A stretch of DNA of 21,394 nucleotides from a virus. The position numbers were made by a program, and so were the translations under genes. Of this stretch, positions 17,258-21,394 are shown one piece after another. The stretch lies in UHGV virus genome UHGV-0175408. The stretch is one strand, 5' to 3'. Under the pieces are notes generated by a model. That model was not told the DNA's origin. It worked only from the letters and a program-made list of their open reading frames with translations, and searched no databases. Position 1 is the stretch's first letter. The number at the start of each line of letters is the position of its first letter.

Positions 17258-17446
17258 ATGAAAGAAAAACAACAGAACATAACACATAAAAAAGTAAGAG
17301 TGTTGCTAACCATTGAAAATGGTGAAGTAATTTACTCAAAACATCTGTTGGATAATGAATTCGTTGGCTGCATGGATACATTTCTGTGGATGGCAAAAAG
17401 AGCTGGCTACACGATTATTCCACCAGCAAAGGAGCAAACATTATGA
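17258..17446 (+). CDS. Hypothetical small protein
   Basis: 62-aa ORF with GGGAGA ribosome-binding site; stop overlaps the next start. Confidence 0.5.
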   Translation: MKEKQQNITHKKVRVLLTIENGEVIYSKHLLDNEFVGCMDTFLWMAKRAGYTIIPPAKEQTL

Positions 17447-18024
17447 ATCATTCAGAGTTCCGACCAGAAGTTACGCCACATGGCATAAAAATTGGCAATA
17501 CAACCATTGATTATGTTGAGGCCGTACAGCGGCTTAATGATGGTGAATACGATAATCCATACTGGCACGGGTTAAGAATCATGCAATGTATTGCAGAAGC
17601 TGATGATGCCGGACTGCTGGGCAAATTTTCAGTCGATATGAAGGTTGCCCAGTGGCGCTGGCTATATGTAGCGAAATTTATCAGTGAAGTGGAAGACAAG
17701 AACGGCACCATTGATATCCCTAACGATAACGGAACTACAGATCGCGCAGTTATTTATAAGGGGAAGCATGGTTGCATGAGTATATACCCAGGACCACTTC
17801 GCATTGCCCTGCAAAACCATGTCGAATGGGGATTTATTGAAAAATATGGTGAAGCTGAAGGCATGGGGCGAGTTCTGTTTCTCTATCAAAAAATGCTCAT
17901 CGCAGATCCTAATAATGGTTTCATTGTCTCTGCTATGGGGCGCGAAGGGCTTGAACTCCTTCTGGATGAAATGATTCACGATCTGAATACTCATGGTATG
18001 CCAGAAGCGCCAGTGACACATTAA
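17443..18024 (+). CDS. Hypothetical protein
   Basis: Start taken at the ATG (MNHSEFRPE...) preceded by AAGGAG; 193 aa; no recognisable motifs. Confidence 0.55.
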   Translation: MNHSEFRPEVTPHGIKIGNTTIDYVEAVQRLNDGEYDNPYWHGLRIMQCIAEADDAGLLGKFSVDMKVAQWRWLYVAKFISEVEDKNGTIDIPNDNGTTDRAVIYKGKHGCMSIYPGPLRIALQNHVEWGFIEKYGEAEGMGRVLFLYQKMLIADPNNGFIVSAMGREGLELLLDEMIHDLNTHGMPEAPVTH

Positions 18025-18200
18025 ATATTAAGAAGAATATAATTCTTCCGTTTTTTACTAACCGTTTATATGAAAAGCAACCGTGAATTAAGCAGAGTAA
18101 AACTGCTTTTAATCCTTGCCACAGTACTGACACTAACAGAAATCATTATTCTCTTTATTGCGCTGTCAGTCAGTTAAAAATATCGGGATGCAACAAACCA

Positions 18201-18389
18201 ATGAGATTGTATTTCAGAATAGTAATTTTACTGGCAATTATCGCATGCATTTACGGACTACTCGTCCCGTTCCTTATATCCATGAAGGATACGGTAGCAG
18301 TCATTTCCGGCTTTGCACTGGCGTTTCTGACCCCGCCCTGCATTTATGCCATTTACAAGGGTCTTTCTTTCACTAAGGGTAAAAGATGA
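18201..18389 (+). CDS. Small two-TM membrane protein, coupled to the downstream SPFH lipoprotein
   Basis: 62-aa hydrophobic ORF; stop overlaps the lipoprotein start (ATGA); an alternative overlapping frame (18158..18376) is less protein-like. Confidence 0.5.
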   Translation: MRLYFRIVILLAIIACIYGLLVPFLISMKDTVAVISGFALAFLTPPCIYAIYKGLSFTKGKR

Positions 18390-19213
18390 AAAAAGTTATT
18401 TTTGCTTTAGCCATTGTTCTTCCGACCATTGGCCTTGTCGGTTGCGATCGCGTTGAACCAGGTAATGTTGGCATCAAGGTAAATAAACTGGGCGACGACA
18501 AAGGCGTCGGTGAAGTGGTTGGCGTTGGCCGCTACTGGACCGGCTGGAATACTGAAGTTTACATCTTCCCGACCTTCAAACAAATGAAGACCTACGATGA
18601 ACCGTTCAGTTTCCAGATGAGTGACGGTACAACCATCGGCTATCACATCGGCGTGGCCTACAAAGTTGACCCATCCAAAGTTACCACGGTGTTTCAGACC
18701 TACCGCAAAGGCGTGGATGACATTACCGACACCGACCTGCGTCAAAAGATCGCCGACGCACTCAATCGACTGGCCAGCAAAATGACCACCGACAAATTTA
18801 TCGACGGCGGCAAGTCTGAACTGCTGGATGCAGCTCTTAAAGACATTCAGGCAGAAATGACGCCCATCGGTATTCAGGTAATGAGCCTCTCATATGTGGG
18901 TAAGCCGGAGTACCCGCCAACCGTTATCGACAGCATTAATGCCAAAGTCACGGCGAACCAGAAAACACTGCAGCGCGAGCAGGAAGTTAAACAGCGCGAA
19001 GCGGAAGCCAACATGTTGCGCGCGGAAGCTGCCGGACAGGCTGATGCGATTCGCACAAAAGCCCAGGCTGAAGCCGATGCTATTCGTTTACGCGGTGAAG
19101 CTCTGCGCCAGAACCCCGGTGTTATGGAGCTGGAAGCCATCAATAAATGGAACGGCACACTGCCGCAATACATGACCAGCGGCGCCAGTACACCATTTAT
19201 CCAGGTTAAATAA
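18386..19213 (+). CDS. SPFH/Band-7 (stomatin/prohibitin/HflKC-like) domain lipoprotein, predicted inner-membrane anchored
   Basis: 275-aa ORF; signal peptide with lipobox LVGC followed by Asp at +2 (inner-membrane retention); central SPFH-like region; Ala/Glu/Gln-rich coiled-coil C-terminus (REQEVKQREAEANMLRAEAAGQADAIRTKAQAEADAIRLRGEA) resembling HflK/HflC tails. Confidence 0.7.
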   Translation: MKKVIFALAIVLPTIGLVGCDRVEPGNVGIKVNKLGDDKGVGEVVGVGRYWTGWNTEVYIFPTFKQMKTYDEPFSFQMSDGTTIGYHIGVAYKVDPSKVTTVFQTYRKGVDDITDTDLRQKIADALNRLASKMTTDKFIDGGKSELLDAALKDIQAEMTPIGIQVMSLSYVGKPEYPPTVIDSINAKVTANQKTLQREQEVKQREAEANMLRAEAAGQADAIRTKAQAEADAIRLRGEALRQNPGVMELEAINKWNGTLPQYMTSGASTPFIQVK

Positions 19214-19253
19214 CTTATATGCCCGGCGACCTGCCGGGCTAAGGGAAAAGCAG

Positions 19254-19625
19254 ATGAACACCCATAATACCCAACCGCAAATAATGAACTATGATCCGAA
19301 TCTGACGTCATGCGGACGCATGGCAAAACAAACCGTTCGATTAACTTTCGGACTATGGGAATACCGCGAAACATTCGAAGTTACTGTCGGCGGCAATCTG
19401 ACCGGACTGGATGTTATCAGTTGCGCTATTGAAAGCCTGTACGCAACGCTGCCTTATGAAGAAGTCGAGGATGAGCGCACAGGGGAAACAGATATCATGG
19501 CCACCATTAATATTGGCGAACTGATATGTCAGGATGAAGACCTGTCCGGAGAACTCTGGCTTGCCGGGATGCTTATCTCAGCAGAAATTATCAGTATTGA
19601 ACCCGCTACAAACATACGGCTCTGA
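19254..19625 (+). CDS. Hypothetical protein
   Basis: 123-aa ORF with AAGGGAAAAG ribosome-binding site; acidic; no recognisable motifs. Confidence 0.5.
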   Translation: MNTHNTQPQIMNYDPNLTSCGRMAKQTVRLTFGLWEYRETFEVTVGGNLTGLDVISCAIESLYATLPYEEVEDERTGETDIMATINIGELICQDEDLSGELWLAGMLISAEIISIEPATNIRL

Positions 19626-19656
19626 AGTTCTCACTATTCAGAGAGCAGGAGAAAAA

Positions 19657-19899
19657 ATGTTCGCTTTGATTAATCAAGGGCAACTGTATACCGACAGTGC
19701 CGGTTACCCGATAAAAATTATTCGCTGCATAAACAACACTGTGTTGTACAGAAGAATGGATGGGCGAACACAATCTGTAAAAATAAGCGATTTTAATGAA
19801 TCGTTTGAACGGATAGATCACCAGGAATACCGACAAATTCTGGCAGAAACAGAGCTGGAAGCTCATCTGAAAAAATTACGAGCCATGAAAAGGAAATAG
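19657..19899 (+). CDS. Hypothetical small protein
   Basis: Start taken at the internal ATG (MFALINQ...) preceded by AGGAGA; 80 aa; the track ORF extends to 19534. Confidence 0.45.
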   Translation: MFALINQGQLYTDSAGYPIKIIRCINNTVLYRRMDGRTQSVKISDFNESFERIDHQEYRQILAETELEAHLKKLRAMKRK

Positions 19900-19902
19900 A
19901 GA

Positions 19903-20049
19903 ATGAATAAAGCATTTGAGCTATGGGTACGCCAGCGTTACGGCAATCGCTATGACCTGACGCGAGACGTTGACGGCTTCTACTGTCGTGAAGTTGTGAG
20001 GCGAATGTTTGAAGTGTGGTGCCACTGCCGTGGGCTGAATGTTGTGTGA
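19903..20049 (+). CDS. Possible small ORF (48 aa) upstream of xis
   Basis: ATG with AAGGAAA upstream; MNKAFELWVRQRYGNRYDLTRDVDGFYCREVVRRMFEVWCHCRGLNVV; below the ORF-track size cutoff. Confidence 0.3.
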   Translation: MNKAFELWVRQRYGNRYDLTRDVDGFYCREVVRRMFEVWCHCRGLNVV

Positions 20050-20057
20050 GGTGAACT

Positions 20058-20267
20058 GTGGGGCTGGATTGCGTACCTATATCAACCTACTGCCGCAACG
20101 CAGGAGAAACGGTTGATGCCGTTAACAAACGGATACAAAGAGGAATATGGAAAGAAGGGGTACATGTATTAAAAGTCGACGGAGTTAAAGAACGTTGGGT
20201 CGACTTAATGGAGATTACAAAATGGGCAAGAAAGAACAAGGATCATTATCTCTCCCTAGAGGAGTAA
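20058..20267 (+). CDS. xis: Excisionase (Xis-like winged-helix protein)
   Basis: 69-aa ORF immediately upstream of and overlapping int; ...ETVDAVNKRIQRGIW...VLKVDGVKERWVDL resembles the lambda/HK022 Xis fold signature; GTG start. Confidence 0.6.
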   Translation: MGLDCVPISTYCRNAGETVDAVNKRIQRGIWKEGVHVLKVDGVKERWVDLMEITKWARKNKDHYLSLEE

Positions 20268-21394
20268 CTATTCGGCAGCATAAAACTGGCAGCACTCTGG
20301 TTATCACTTTTACATATAAAGGGGTTCTGTGTCGGGAGCCCCTCTCCAGAATGGAAGTAAACGCGCGCGGTGTGAAGTACGCCGAGCGTCTGCTGGGAGA
20401 AATAAAAAATCAGATTATCGATGGTACCTTCGAATATGCAAAATACTTCCCCAACTCCCAAAAGCTGGAGTTGTTCGGGGGAGTGAAAAAAAACAAAAAT
20501 ATAAAATCTTATCTGGATGAATACCTGATTATCTGCCAGAACCGTAACCTGTCACCATCGACAATTAGAGGTTATGAAAAATGCTTGTCGGCGCTGTCAG
20601 CATTGCATAAATTTCATGTATCAGAACTGACACCTGCTGTACTAAAAAACTGGATCGCCAGCAGAAAAACAAAACTGAAAACGATCCGCAATAATCTTTC
20701 GTTTCTGCGCAGCGCCATAGATGAAGCGGTGACCGATGGTTTGTTAACAATAAATCCTGTCACGCTAGTCAGCGCCAGCCGGTATCACGTATTGGACAAC
20801 ACACCAGGCAGTGGTGATTACGAGGTCGATCCCTTTACACCAGCGGAGACGGCAGCAATCTATGACGCCTGTCATTACCCGGAATGGCGAAATCTGTTTC
20901 GCTTTGCCTTTAATACTGGACTGCGTAGCTCAGAATTGTGCGCGTTGCGCTGGACGGATATAGACTTTATCGGCAACACCGCGCATGTTCAGACTGCAAG
21001 CGTAGTCGGGGTAATCAAAAGCACCAAAACAAAAGCCGGCACCCGCAAAGTGCAACTGAACAGCGAAGCGCTGGCAGCTCTTCAGGCACAAAAGCCCTAC
21101 ACGGCGCTAAAGAGCGACTTCATATTCAGCGATCCGAAAACTCGCGCCCCTTGGGCAAACGCAGATGCGATCCGAAAAAAAGCCTGGGTACCAACCCTTA
21201 AAAAAGCTGGTGTACGCTATCGCAATCCGTACCAGACACGCCACACGTTCGCCACTCGGCACATTAGCCAGGGCGTTAACCTGTTCTGGCTTGCTGGTCA
21301 GATGGGGCATAAAGGACCGGAAATGCTGTTCAGACATTACGGCTCTTACCTTGCAGAATACGATGGAAAAACGGCGATTTCTGCAACCCCGTAA
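20222..21394 (+). CDS. int: Tyrosine integrase (phage integrase with N-terminal arm-binding domain)
   Basis: Start taken at the ATG (MGKKEQGSLSLPRGV...) preceded by GGAG; catalytic-domain residues near the C-terminus (R...HTFATRHISQG...LAGQMGH...Y); last gene before the window edge; the track starts at a TTG at 20195. Confidence 0.85.
   Translation: MGKKEQGSLSLPRGVTIRQHKTGSTLVITFTYKGVLCREPLSRMEVNARGVKYAERLLGEIKNQIIDGTFEYAKYFPNSQKLELFGGVKKNKNIKSYLDEYLIICQNRNLSPSTIRGYEKCLSALSALHKFHVSELTPAVLKNWIASRKTKLKTIRNNLSFLRSAIDEAVTDGLLTINPVTLVSASRYHVLDNTPGSGDYEVDPFTPAETAAIYDACHYPEWRNLFRFAFNTGLRSSELCALRWTDIDFIGNTAHVQTASVVGVIKSTKTKAGTRKVQLNSEALAALQAQKPYTALKSDFIFSDPKTRAPWANADAIRKKAWVPTLKKAGVRYRNPYQTRHTFATRHISQGVNLFWLAGQMGHKGPEMLFRHYGSYLAEYDGKTAISATP

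Follow-up and report, generated by a model that had tools for sequence, protein, structure and literature searches.

Results

Gene organization and local DNA features

The window, by which we mean the whole 21,394-nucleotide stretch of the virus genome UHGV-0175408, contains two adjacent genes that encode a small membrane protein with two transmembrane (TM) segments, hereafter referred to as the hairpin protein, and a lipoprotein with an SPFH/Band 7 domain (Table 1). The stop codon of the first gene and the start codon of the second share an ATGA overlap, which implies that the two are translationally coupled. In this respect, the coordinates, hydropathy, and overlap all agree with the original prediction of a 62-residue two-TM protein coupled to a 275-residue one. 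The same 4-nt overlap is found in the pairs of KpCHEMY26, phi1026b, and two further loci (L093 and L095), while the genes of other relatives are separated by a gap, or joined by an overlap, of 1–20 nt.

Table 1. Positions of the gene pair and of associated features in the window.
Feature	Position	Strand	Details
LexA/CI-type repressor gene	15449-16141		
Terminator of repressor gene	16164-16182		
pL-like promoter, TTGACA-17-TATTAT	16209..16237	+	Promoter scan, 11/12 matches
Weak AU-rich hairpin followed by U6, 5' of pair	18032..18056	+	Fold dG -4.9 kcal/mol, z -2.2
Unannotated ORF, 35 aa, single TM, just 5' of pair	18070..18177	+	
ORF 1, two-TM hairpin protein, 62 aa	18201..18389	+	N4 gp19 / PHROG 1130 family
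AAGGG Shine-Dalgarno of SPFH gene	18375-18379	+	Sequence
ATGA stop/start overlap	18386..18389	+	4 nt; context AAA AGA TGA / ATG AAA
ORF 2, SPFH/Band 7 lipoprotein, 275 aa	18386..19213	+	N4 gp20 / PHROG 200 family
Predicted lipoprotein signal peptide, lipobox, and Asp+2	18386..18448	+	Cys20 codon 18443-18445; Asp+2 codon 18446-18448
Band_7/SPFH domain, residues 22-208	18449..19009	+	Pfam envelope; AF2 secondary structure
Long helix 178-242, short helix 244-253, and C-terminal motif K-W-N-G-x-L-P...P-F	18917..19213	+	AF2 model; alignment
GC-rich hairpin, GCCCGGC-GACCU-GCCGGGC	19221..19239	+	dG -17.1 kcal/mol, z -2.7
int	20222-21394		

Among 55 alleles of the SPFH gene from close relatives, there are 47, 32, and 213 variable sites at the three codon positions, respectively, and neither stops nor indels, a bias that confirms both the plus-strand frame and purifying selection. 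The hairpin ORF is open in all 19 of its alleles; its own codon-position pattern (8/6/9) is uninformative, and we take the ORF to be real on account of its homology across phages. The GC content of the pair (0.50–0.56) exceeds that of the flanks (0.36–0.44), which indicates a mosaic, acquired module.

The AU-rich hairpin that precedes the pair is conserved in close relatives. It failed the terminator scan, which requires at least three GC pairs, and may be a weak intrinsic terminator that is read through by early-operon transcription. The GC-rich hairpin on the other side lies 8 nt past the SPFH stop codon and has no U tract. The unannotated 35-residue ORF is open in 22 alleles from 46 close loci, with a codon-position pattern (10/4/10) that is not decisive and no match in PHROG and Pfam searches; it may encode a third small membrane protein, although its status is uncertain. 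An Rfam search of positions 15000–21394 gave no match, and a repeat search around the pair revealed nothing meaningful.

The SPFH lipoprotein and its predicted location

The N-terminus of the SPFH protein (MKKVIFALAIVLPTIGLVGC, followed by DR) includes the lipobox LVGC, which ends in Cys20 and is followed by Asp21 at position +2. The segment L-V-G-C20-D21-R22 fits the pattern that we applied, [LVI][ASTVI][GAS]C with Asp at +2 (the E. coli +2 rule), and the C-D-R sequence is present in 98 of the 106 close homologues that have a lipobox. In some lineages, the lipobox Cys is replaced by Tyr, Trp, or Phe (G[YWF]DR), with one such variant occurring on 175 contigs; we assume that a Cys-less leader of this kind is uncleaved, in which case it would likewise hold the protein in the inner membrane. 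Based on the lipobox, the Asp at +2, and the Cys-less signal-anchor variants, the SPFH domain is predicted to reside on the periplasmic face of the inner membrane, and the earlier reading of the Asp as an inner-membrane retention signal thus appears reasonable. Outside the enterobacterial phages, the +2 residue is Ser, Thr, or Asn, as seen in Vibrio, Pseudomonas, Erwinia, and metagenomic members. Were the E. coli rule to apply, these residues would direct the protein to the outer membrane, where contact with an inner-membrane hairpin is harder to envisage, but sorting rules differ between taxa, and we regard the variation as a caveat rather than a refutation. In many E. coli genomes, the DNA homology begins at query position ~240, i.e., at the lipobox, so that this site acts as a recombination joint.

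The remainder of the protein matches Pfam Band_7 (PF01145) with E=8.2e-31 and 107.8 bits against a cut-off of 23.6, covering model positions 2–176 of 176, and PHROG 200, annotated as 'lipoprotein', with E=5.5e-114. The AlphaFold2 model (pLDDT 80) comprises a β-rich N-terminal part, an α/β SPFH core, and a single helix of 65 residues (178–242). Foldseek agrees, with matches to prohibitin, HflC, HflK, erlin, and stomatin at E-values of 1e-13 to 1e-10; flotillin, MVP, and QmcA were also matched, and all of the families fall between 1e-13 and 1e-7, with each of the cage-forming SPFH families represented. Both the HMM search and the model therefore uphold the original assignment of the protein as a lipoprotein with an SPFH/Band 7 fold. 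An alignment of 123 sequences shows that W255, G257, and P260 are invariant and that K254, P270, and F271 are nearly so; the C-terminal region is the part that forms the cage wall and cap in solved SPFH complexes. The pLDDT is low past residue 254, which would fit a segment that becomes ordered only in an oligomer.

As modeled, the protein has the architecture of the cage-forming SPFH members. Solved SPFH proteins (HflK/C, QmcA, prohibitin, stomatin, flotillin, and erlin) form closed or nautilus-like rings on the membrane, and by analogy with these relatives, we infer that the phage protein may also oligomerize into a ring or cage. The label 'putative serine protease', which is attached to phiP27 L05 and others, is unsupported, as Band_7 is the only domain detected in the protein; we suspect that it stems from COG-style 'membrane protease subunit' naming.

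The C-terminal tail had been described as HflK/HflC-like. While the long helix is indeed seen in the model, the similarity to HflK and HflC is generic, being no closer than to prohibitin, erlin, stomatin, or QmcA. The NCBIfam models for HflK (TIGR01933) and HflC (TIGR01932) give only 22.7 and 24.7 bits against cut-offs of 159.4 and 134.4, respectively, and align with the C-terminal half only. In a PDB profile search, HflK, prohibitin-1, QmcA, and HflC score within one order of magnitude of each other, with HflK being the nominal best sequence match (E=1.3e-3 with a single sequence and 3.6e-6 with a profile).

These comparisons bear on the idea that the pair mimics HflKC, with a periplasmic SPFH assembly that would capture or displace FtsH hexamers and so alter the turnover of FtsH substrates; in temperate phages these would be CII/CIII-like regulators, and in lytic phages other proteins of the phage or the host. 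Phages do target FtsH, as exemplified by lambda CIII, and the idea gains from the predicted topology, which is that of HflK/C, from the modeled cage-former architecture, and from the nominal top rank of HflK. It is weakened by scores far under the HflK/HflC equivalog cut-offs, by the similar scores of the other families, and by the absence of both a second SPFH paralogue and an N-terminal TM anchor; in addition, it leaves the conserved hairpin protein without a role. The phage distribution described below weighs further on this idea, which for phage SPFH genes in general was already raised in 2016 and 2021, the 2021 paper noting that obligately lytic phages carry an SPFH gene too.

The hairpin protein

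A hydropathy scan of the hairpin protein reveals hydrophobic segments at residues ~5–27 and 31–52 with basic residues at both ends. Both termini are thus predicted to lie inside (N-in/C-in), with the two segments joined by a short turn in the periplasm (P-F-L-I-S-M-K-D-T), and the C-terminal tail is basic. The protein matches PHROG 1130 ('membrane protein') with E=1.5e-23, and the Band_7 and PHROG scores of the pair are all far beyond chance. Profile searching places ~750 clusters at 50% identity in the hairpin family, and alignments show an invariant Pro23 and a conserved turn, P-x-L-[IV]-S-x-K-D-[TS]. No significant match was found in Pfam, including NfeD and the holin families, the best being DUF6320 (E=0.04). 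The link to NfeD that the original prediction had put forward for checking thus finds no support, and we judge the protein too short to contain an NfeD domain.

Two TM segments in an N-in/C-in arrangement are hallmarks of class II holins, and the size, predicted topology, and charged C-terminus of the hairpin protein are typical of that class. It could accordingly be imagined as a class II holin-, pinholin-, or antiholin-like protein that is corralled by the SPFH scaffold, with the effect of delaying or tuning permeabilization. The analogous Kayvirus genes mbpV ('holin-like') and mbpS are located in the lysis region, between lysK and tgl, and N4 displays lysis inhibition to which regions outside the lysis cassette reportedly contribute. 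However, the pair lies far from the lysis cassette and among early or replication genes, both here and in most of the phages examined, no Pfam holin family is matched, and the preprint on lysis and lysis inhibition in N4 mentions none of gp18, gp19, and gp20. We consider a role in lysis timing to be unlikely.

Distribution of the gene pair

By sequence comparison, the pair is a copy, in a lambdoid prophage, of the N4 gp19-gp20 cassette (PHROG 1130 plus PHROG 200), an old module with a wide distribution that is carried by hundreds of phages, temperate as well as strictly lytic. Orthologous pairs are found in strictly virulent phages, including N4 (gp19/gp20, 63% identity), KpCHEMY26 (73%), and Vequintavirinae, and the strictly virulent groups with the pair are Schitoviridae, Vequintavirinae, Ounavirinae, and Kayvirus. 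The pair is also present in N4-like Klebsiella phages, in P1-like and SSU5-like phage-plasmids, and in Burkholderia and Vibrio phages. A homologous hairpin gene lies directly upstream in N4, Moo19, KpCHEMY26, EC152, CKB-S1, phi1026b, a P1-like plasmid, and an SSU5-like plasmid. Conversely, when the loci of nine hairpin proteins were looked up, among them metagenomic proteins (E ~1e-8) and with GC contents spanning 29–59%, a Band_7 gene was found immediately downstream in eight of them and one small ORF further away in the other (P0152). One protein, P0003, is a natural in-frame fusion with the order TM1-TM2-signal peptide-SPFH, as confirmed by a model. The pair is therefore conserved, usually with translational coupling of its genes, and its range extends beyond the prophages for which a survey had originally been proposed, to strictly virulent phages and phage-plasmids.

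The usual neighbors of the pair are early replication and nucleotide genes, such as the RNAP II genes in N4, those for dUTPase, DNA polymerase, Thy1, and SSB, and dmt and ban in the P1-like plasmid. Relatives of the SPFH gene are detectable at the DNA level in 716 of 5426 complete E. coli genomes (13%) and at the protein level in 668 records of phages and 691 of plasmids, the majority of the latter being phage-plasmids. The hairpin is not universal across the wider SPFH family, since other small upstream partners occur in Kayvirus (MbpV, with one TM) and Pae-1 (with a C-terminal TM), and the membrane partner of the SPFH-lipoprotein gene is absent in Erwinia MM7. Distant single-gene SPFH relatives are found in phages of Gram-positive bacteria and in haloarchaeal viruses.

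Two candidate relatives were rejected. Phage P1 carries plp, upl, and tciABC in the dmt-ban interval, where the P1-like plasmid has its SPFH pair, but plp/upl are not homologues of the pair, Plp being a 125-residue non-SPFH protein encoded on the opposite strand. Mycobacteriophage Sbash gp30 was considered as part of an SPFH and channel pair; the paper shows it to be RexA-like (DUF4747) and does not mention SPFH.

The breadth of this distribution speaks against mimicry of HflKC. Strictly lytic phages have no lysogeny decision to make, and the SPFH lipoprotein occurs alone in haloarchaeal viruses, whose hosts, to our knowledge, lack FtsH. Moreover, no member of the lambda CII and CIII families was found among the ten ORFs neighboring the pair. 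The pair is thus probably not a lysogeny-specific HflKC mimic, and the earlier proposal that it biases the lysis-lysogeny decision is not supported in view of the generic similarity, the virulent-phage orthologues, and the neighboring ORFs. We likewise deem a broader action on FtsH, covering temperate and lytic phages alike, to be unlikely.

The distribution also bears on whether the animal host is the target of the protein, as a lipoprotein of lysogenic conversion or virulence. Such a role has been reported for PM0222 (Pmorf0222, OAZ06802.1) of Pasteurella multocida, which was characterized only as a virulence factor and TLR1/2 agonist; it leaves the cell in outer-membrane vesicles and acts by TLR1/2 signaling, and its deletion yields an attenuated mutant (PMC9872710). 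The window matches ETEC genomes from pigs and cattle, which would suit such a role, but members of the family abound in archaeal viruses and in lytic phages that infect environmental bacteria, so that a host-directed role is not the primary one. Activation of TLR2 is furthermore a general property of bacterial lipoproteins, and we find this explanation highly improbable.

Literature searches returned no functional study of the phage hairpin/SPFH pair, nothing relevant on N4 gp19/gp20, and, when SPFH was combined with defense terms, nothing mentioning SPFH. This agrees with the initial impression that the pair is not a described system, and a 2026 paper still calls it unclear why an SPFH gene sits in a phage genome.

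Prophage neighborhood and transcription

The prophage is a phiP27-like one of E. coli, and the pair belongs to its early-left operon, close to the repressor gene. The order of repressor gene, terminator, pL-like promoter, small genes, and int confirms the placement made in the original prediction; in full, the promoter is followed by ~2 kb of small genes, the pair, DUF5406, DUF4222, an excisionase-like ORF, and int. The pL-like promoter is the only strong σ70 match upstream on the plus strand and probably drives the operon containing the pair. The promoter scan found no σ70 site directly in front of the pair, for which reason we dropped the notion of a self-contained moron with its own promoter. 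In phage P1, the dmt-ban interval is transcribed from the C1-repressed Pban promoter. Taken together, the lack of a σ70 promoter before the pair and the location of the P1-like plasmid's pair in this interval make expression in the lysogen doubtful. The timing of expression that we propose is a prediction from gene order.

Doubtful expression in the lysogen weighs on the possibility that the pair is a prophage-expressed defense system, shielding the lysogen by superinfection exclusion or abortive infection. Such a system would be at home in the accessory region of a prophage and in a mosaic module with a higher GC content than its flanks; moreover, the hairpin falls in the PHROG category 'moron, auxiliary metabolic gene and host takeover', and the pairs of N4 and Moo19 adjoin a gene annotated as superinfection exclusion. 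On the other hand, besides the transcriptional arguments from the missing promoter and Pban, virulent phages retain the pair, and a PADLOC-DB 2.0 search (E<=0.1) with both proteins and two neighbors gave zero matches. Lysogen defense, which the original prediction had offered as an option, is in our estimation improbable. Exclusion during the lytic cycle is distinct from lysogen defense and forms part of the explanation presented below.

Discussion

A model for the function of the pair

Overall, we favor, if only somewhat above even chances, the explanation that during lytic growth this conserved cassette erects an SPFH scaffold on the inner membrane, at its periplasmic face. That its function belongs to the lytic cycle rather than being a lysogeny device is quite likely, given that the pair is found in strictly virulent phages, that its neighbors are early replication genes, and that no promoter is located directly upstream here. 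Assembly of the SPFH protein with the hairpin on the periplasmic face is itself probable.

According to this model, the pair would be transcribed in lytic development from the repressor-controlled early-left promoter. The SPFH protein would be exported, lipidated at Cys20, and held in the inner membrane by the Asp at +2, after which it may oligomerize into a ring or dome on the periplasmic face, in the manner of solved full-length SPFH proteins. The hairpin protein would lie in the bilayer beneath the ring and would provide in trans what HflK/C have in cis, a transmembrane palisade. Contact between the two would most likely involve the P-x-L-I-S-x-K-D-T turn, since this is the only part of the hairpin predicted to be exposed to the periplasm. 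In this way, the phage would build a membrane microdomain that conditions the infected cell's inner membrane and in which the hairpin protein, inner-membrane proteins of the host, or both could be confined.

As to what the phage might gain, we tentatively suggest, by analogy with other systems, that during the latent period the pair either safeguards membrane integrity and the proton-motive force or excludes a second infection. More speculatively still, and with considerable doubt, the pair may be a hitherto unrecognized early module, near-universal among tailed phages, whose cage on the outer side of the cytoplasmic membrane encloses or insulates specific membrane machinery in the infected cell. 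The cargo of such a cage could be FtsH, proton-motive-force-dependent complexes, or the phage's own channel-forming hairpin, and the module would then represent a novel class of device by which viruses take over the membrane.

SPFH proteins occur in every domain of life, yet the role of most bacterial members is unclear. Phage copies have been noted in many genome papers; what our analysis adds is that the phage SPFH lipoprotein has a two-helix partner that is conserved and obligate, that the module is predicted to be exported to the outer face of the cytoplasmic membrane, and that temperate phages share it with strictly lytic ones, the model phage N4 among them. The question is thereby no longer how a prophage might tamper with the lambda CII switch, but what phages in general do at the cell membrane. 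A cage with a defined cargo, should the pair form one, would offer a small and tractable model of cargo selection by SPFH cages.

Comparison with known systems

In functional terms, the proposed role recalls T4 Imm and Sp and T5 Llp, which are small early inner-membrane or lipoprotein products that act on the envelope and exclude secondary infection. The parallel is one of analogy only; they have no known relationship to the pair in sequence or fold, and none of them is an SPFH protein. PM0222, which is encoded by a lambda-like prophage, resembles the phage SPFH family by description only, in being HflK/C-like and of similar size (25–35 kDa), and its report does not discuss a partner gene (PMC9872710).

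With HflK and HflC, the phage protein shares the SPFH fold, the long helix, and the C-terminal cap region, and its SPFH domain is predicted to be on the periplasmic face. However, HflK and HflC are two adjacent SPFH paralogues, each with an N-terminal TM helix, whereas the phage has a single SPFH gene, whose product would be held by a lipid anchor, and an upstream gene for a 62-residue hairpin without an SPFH domain. The SPFH-NfeD operons (E. coli QmcA-YbbJ and YqiK-YqiJ, and Pyrococcus PH1511-PH1510) resemble the phage pair in having a small membrane-protein gene directly upstream, and QmcA-YbbJ has been solved as a cage with the partner inside (8z5g). They differ in that the phage partner has only 62 residues and matches neither NfeD nor any other Pfam family, and in that their SPFH domain faces the cytoplasm, while that of the phage protein is predicted to be exported.

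Among phage systems, Staphylococcus Kayvirus MbpS is a distant SPFH homologue (~25% identity over the full length) with an exported N-terminus and an abutting small membrane-protein gene upstream. Its N-terminus, in which basic residues are followed by a TM segment, would place the SPFH domain outside the cell and seemingly provides a TM anchor. The upstream MbpV, with its one TM and charged cytoplasmic tail, is no homologue of the hairpin. The only published idea for this pair is that it aids Sec export of Tgl (PMC7150955). The N4 pair, for its part, has the same arrangement as the one described here, with a lipobox, a hairpin gene directly upstream, a stop/start overlap, and an SPFH protein whose identity to ours extends over the full length. 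It differs in belonging to a strictly virulent phage, in which it follows the RNAP II genes and the gene annotated as superinfection exclusion, and in having Tyr rather than Asp at +2, while gp19 shares with our hairpin protein the turn P-x-[LM]-[IV]-S-x-x-D-S.

The hairpin and SPFH lipoprotein genes

The two genes of the pair share an ATGA overlap, and six bases 5' of its start the SPFH gene has an AAGGG ribosome-binding site. Judged by hydropathy, the 62-residue protein has two hydrophobic stretches, a linker turn P-F-L-I-S-M-K-D-T and basic ends, which predicts an N-in/C-in hairpin; it matches PHROG 1130 ('membrane protein', E=1.5e-23). The 275-residue protein has a lipoprotein signal peptide at its N-terminus, with the lipobox L-V-G-C20 followed by Asp21-Arg22, and matches Pfam Band_7 over residues 22-208 (E=8.2e-31) as well as PHROG 200 ('lipoprotein', E=5.5e-114). 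The original prediction of a two-TM protein coupled to a lipoprotein with an SPFH domain is thus borne out. Among 55 alleles from close relatives, variation in the SPFH gene is distributed 47/32/213 over the codon positions without stops, and we therefore regard the + strand as its coding frame and the long antisense ORFs as by-products. An AlphaFold2 model of the protein (alignment of 123 sequences, pLDDT 80) has a β-rich N-terminal part, an α/β core, a single helix at 178-242, and a poorly ordered C-terminus.

Features of the hairpin-SPFH locus and other parts of the window
Feature	Position	Strand	Remarks
tRNA-Gly (TCC) gene	5439-5513	-	late region
ompC-like porin gene	7622-8719	+	365 aa
Q antiterminator gene	8909-9292	-	adjoins porin gene
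BssS-family gene	14679-15002	+	immunity region
YdaS-type Cro-like gene	15087-15401	-	immunity region
LexA/CI-type repressor	15449-16141	+	
Terminator	16164-16182	+	3' of repressor gene
Near-consensus promoter	16209-16237	+	
Weak AU hairpin with U6 run	18032-18056		precedes the pair
Unannotated 35-aa single-TM ORF, MKSNRELSRVKLLLILATVLTLTEIIILFIALSVS	18070-18177	+	between 193-aa gene and hairpin gene
Hairpin ORF, 62 aa	18201-18389	+	
SPFH lipoprotein ORF, 275 aa	18386-19213	+	
Strong GC hairpin without U tract on either strand	19221-19239		8 nt past SPFH stop; dG -17 kcal/mol

Relation to HflK/HflC and other SPFH proteins

The pair had also been proposed to be a prophage-encoded mimic of HflKC, but the kinship to HflK and HflC is generic. 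The NCBIfam scores fall far below the cut-offs (HflC, 24.7 bits against 134; HflK, 22.7 against 159), and among PDB sequences a profile built from nine phage homologues retrieves HflK (3.6e-6), prohibitin-1 (6e-6), QmcA (2e-5), and HflC (4e-5). Foldseek likewise matches the model to prohibitin, HflC, HflK, erlin, stomatin, flotillin, major vault protein, and QmcA, all at 1e-13 to 1e-7. From these rankings, the protein would be a canonical protomer of a cage-forming SPFH family; an HflK or HflC orthologue was rejected owing to the sub-cut-off scores and the equal matches to prohibitin, QmcA, erlin, and stomatin. There is no second SPFH paralogue beside the gene, and whereas HflK/C are anchored by a TM helix, the lipobox predicts a lipid anchor here.

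Earlier genome papers had already raised a link between phage SPFH genes and CII, one of them pointing out that obligately lytic phages also carry the gene. Ten ORFs around the immunity region encode no member of the lambda CII or CIII families (their regulators are YdaS/Cro-like, Rha, and Ash). Capture of FtsH by a phage SPFH assembly is conceivable, but nothing points to it specifically, and it would leave the conserved hairpin unexplained. The mechanistic part of the original prediction is mostly not supported.

Membrane anchoring

C-D-R is present in 98 of the 106 close homologues with a lipobox. The +2 residue is Tyr in N4 and Moo19, and beyond the enterobacterial clade it varies (S, T, N), which cautions against generalizing inner-membrane retention. 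Some lineages (proteins P0062-P0067 and P0110-P0114) have Tyr, Trp, or Phe in place of the lipobox Cys (G[YWF]DR), and one of these proteins recurs on 175 contigs. Assuming that the leader is uncleaved, these proteins would still be kept in the inner membrane, so this location appears to be the feature under selection and lipidation itself dispensable; a signal anchor may replace it. Distant homologues differ further: that of the Kayvirus Staphylococcus phage ISP (L009 1666-2765) is anchored by a TM segment at its N-terminus and is paired with a 102-aa protein with one TM, and the SPFH gene of Halorubrum virus HRTV-8 (L010 1788-2855) is annotated with a ~70-aa extension holding a hydrophobic segment.

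Distribution and pairing

The distribution is decisive for the interpretation. By tblastn, the SPFH protein is matched in 668 phage records, including strictly virulent groups: N4-like Schitoviridae at 62-73% identity, Vequintavirinae at ~50%, Ounavirinae, Bruynoghevirus, Lak megaphages, haloarchaeal tailed viruses, and 168 Staphylococcus phage records, the sampled ones being Kayvirus-sized with ~25% identity. It is also found in 691 plasmid records (636 non-mobilizable), which we take to be P1-like and SSU5/pMT1-like phage-plasmids because the sampled ones are mostly 90-115 kb, and 716 of 5426 complete E. coli genomes hold a relative at the DNA level.

A homologous hairpin gene lies directly 5' of the SPFH gene in N4 (gp19 and gp20), Moo19, KpCHEMY26, and EC152, and the same arrangement recurs in Vibrio phage CKB-S1, Burkholderia phage phi1026b, one P1-like plasmid, and one SSU5-like plasmid, usually with overlapping genes. 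Searching with a profile of the hairpin family yields 750 clusters (50% identity), and of the 150 listed nearly all are 55-90 aa long with full-length matches. Starting from nine different, in part distantly related hairpins (loci of 29-59% GC), a Band_7 gene follows immediately 3' in eight cases and one small ORF further on in the ninth. Conservation within the hairpin peaks at the predicted periplasmic turn, P-x-L-[IV]-S-x-K-D-[TS]; no other segment could contact an exported SPFH domain.

The 347-aa protein P0003, represented by eight member sequences, combines hairpin, signal peptide, and SPFH domain with coherent topology. In a P1-like phage-plasmid lineage (L084 2784-3828), the hairpin ORF and the start of the SPFH gene share 20 nt that span an A7 run. 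The fused product corresponds to loss of one A and may reflect a genuine fusion, slippage during transcription, or an error in sequencing the homopolymer.

DNA-level homology to the pair starts, in many E. coli genomes and phage-plasmids, at query ~240, the lipobox/CDRVEPG codons (window 18440-18450); the hairpin gene with the signal peptide and the mature SPFH part therefore form two separately exchangeable modules. Across loci L084-L092, mature SPFH is 92% identical, with divergent hairpin and signal peptide.

Locus and timing

Porcine ETEC strains such as ETEC1732 carry a prophage with 100% identity to positions 17000-20200 of the window, and the pair shares 95-99% protein identity with Stx phage phiP27, whose SPFH gene L05 is annotated 'putative serine protease'. 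The + strand order (repressor, terminator, promoter, HTH gene, several small genes, the pair, DUF5406, DUF4222, excisionase-like ORF, integrase) agrees with the predicted early-left placement. The GC content of the SPFH gene, 0.50-0.56 against 0.36-0.44 in the flanks, fits a mosaic module, and the GC hairpin might be an mRNA stabilizer or a processing or recombination site.

Several neighboring features were also observed. The 35-aa ORF remains uninterrupted in 22 alleles drawn from 46 close loci, its codon-position pattern (10/4/10) being no proof of coding. The BssS-family gene (Pfam E=9e-15) lies between Rha and the YdaS-type gene. The porin gene, 'porin OmpC' by RefSeq in ETEC1732, runs opposite to the Q gene; it and the tRNA-Gly gene are offset by ~195-200 nt relative to ETEC1732, and the window is therefore not wholly collinear with that genome upstream of ~15 kb. 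In ETEC1732, a P4-like satellite encoding an integrase, the Psu polarity-suppression protein, and a regulatory protein (L001 24738-29718, outside the window) directly adjoins the integrase end of the prophage.

The promoter scan found no sigma-70-like site directly upstream of the pair, and this lack of a dedicated promoter makes the pair look like a lytic-cycle function rather than one expressed in the lysogen. Elsewhere the genes around it serve mainly in early or replication processes (RNAP II in N4, dUTPase, DNA polymerase, Thy1, SSB, exonuclease), and in a P1-like plasmid it lies between dmt and ban, an interval transcribed in P1 from the C1-repressed Pban promoter. The missing promoter also speaks against the rival reading of lysogen defence, and no PADLOC model matches either protein.

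A proposed model for the cassette

By identity, pairing, and distribution, the feature is real and a conserved phage cassette. To our knowledge, all solved full-length SPFH proteins form a ring or dome on their membranes. We infer that the SPFH protein would be exported, membrane-anchored, and assembled into such a structure on the periplasmic face of the inner membrane with the hairpin in the bilayer beneath, the two making a phage-built membrane domain during lytic growth. As pay-off we favor insulation of the inner membrane, which would protect its integrity and the proton-motive force or exclude secondary infection. The module is very common, present in model phages, and directly testable; phage SPFH genes are already familiar to specialists, and the mechanism is so far only proposed.

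Comparison with known systems

We found no functional study of the hairpin-SPFH family in the literature, and for an N4-like phage, a paper of 2026 states that the reason why the SPFH gene is present 'remains unclear'. Kayviruses carry mbpV (holin-like, one TM) and mbpS (SPFH) between lysK and tgl, which the authors speculated aid Sec export of Tgl (PMC7150955); a rival reading of our pair is that a holin-like hairpin acts in lysis timing. Another rival, a host-directed lipoprotein, recalls PM0222 of a Pasteurella prophage, an HflK/C-like protein described as a vesicle-borne TLR1/2 agonist and virulence factor (PMC9872710) and at most a candidate member of this family. In the SPFH-NfeD theme, the partner carries NfeD, whereas that of the phage protein is a non-NfeD hairpin; the cassette is best filed under the theme of SPFH plus small membrane partner, with an exported lipoprotein as its SPFH component.
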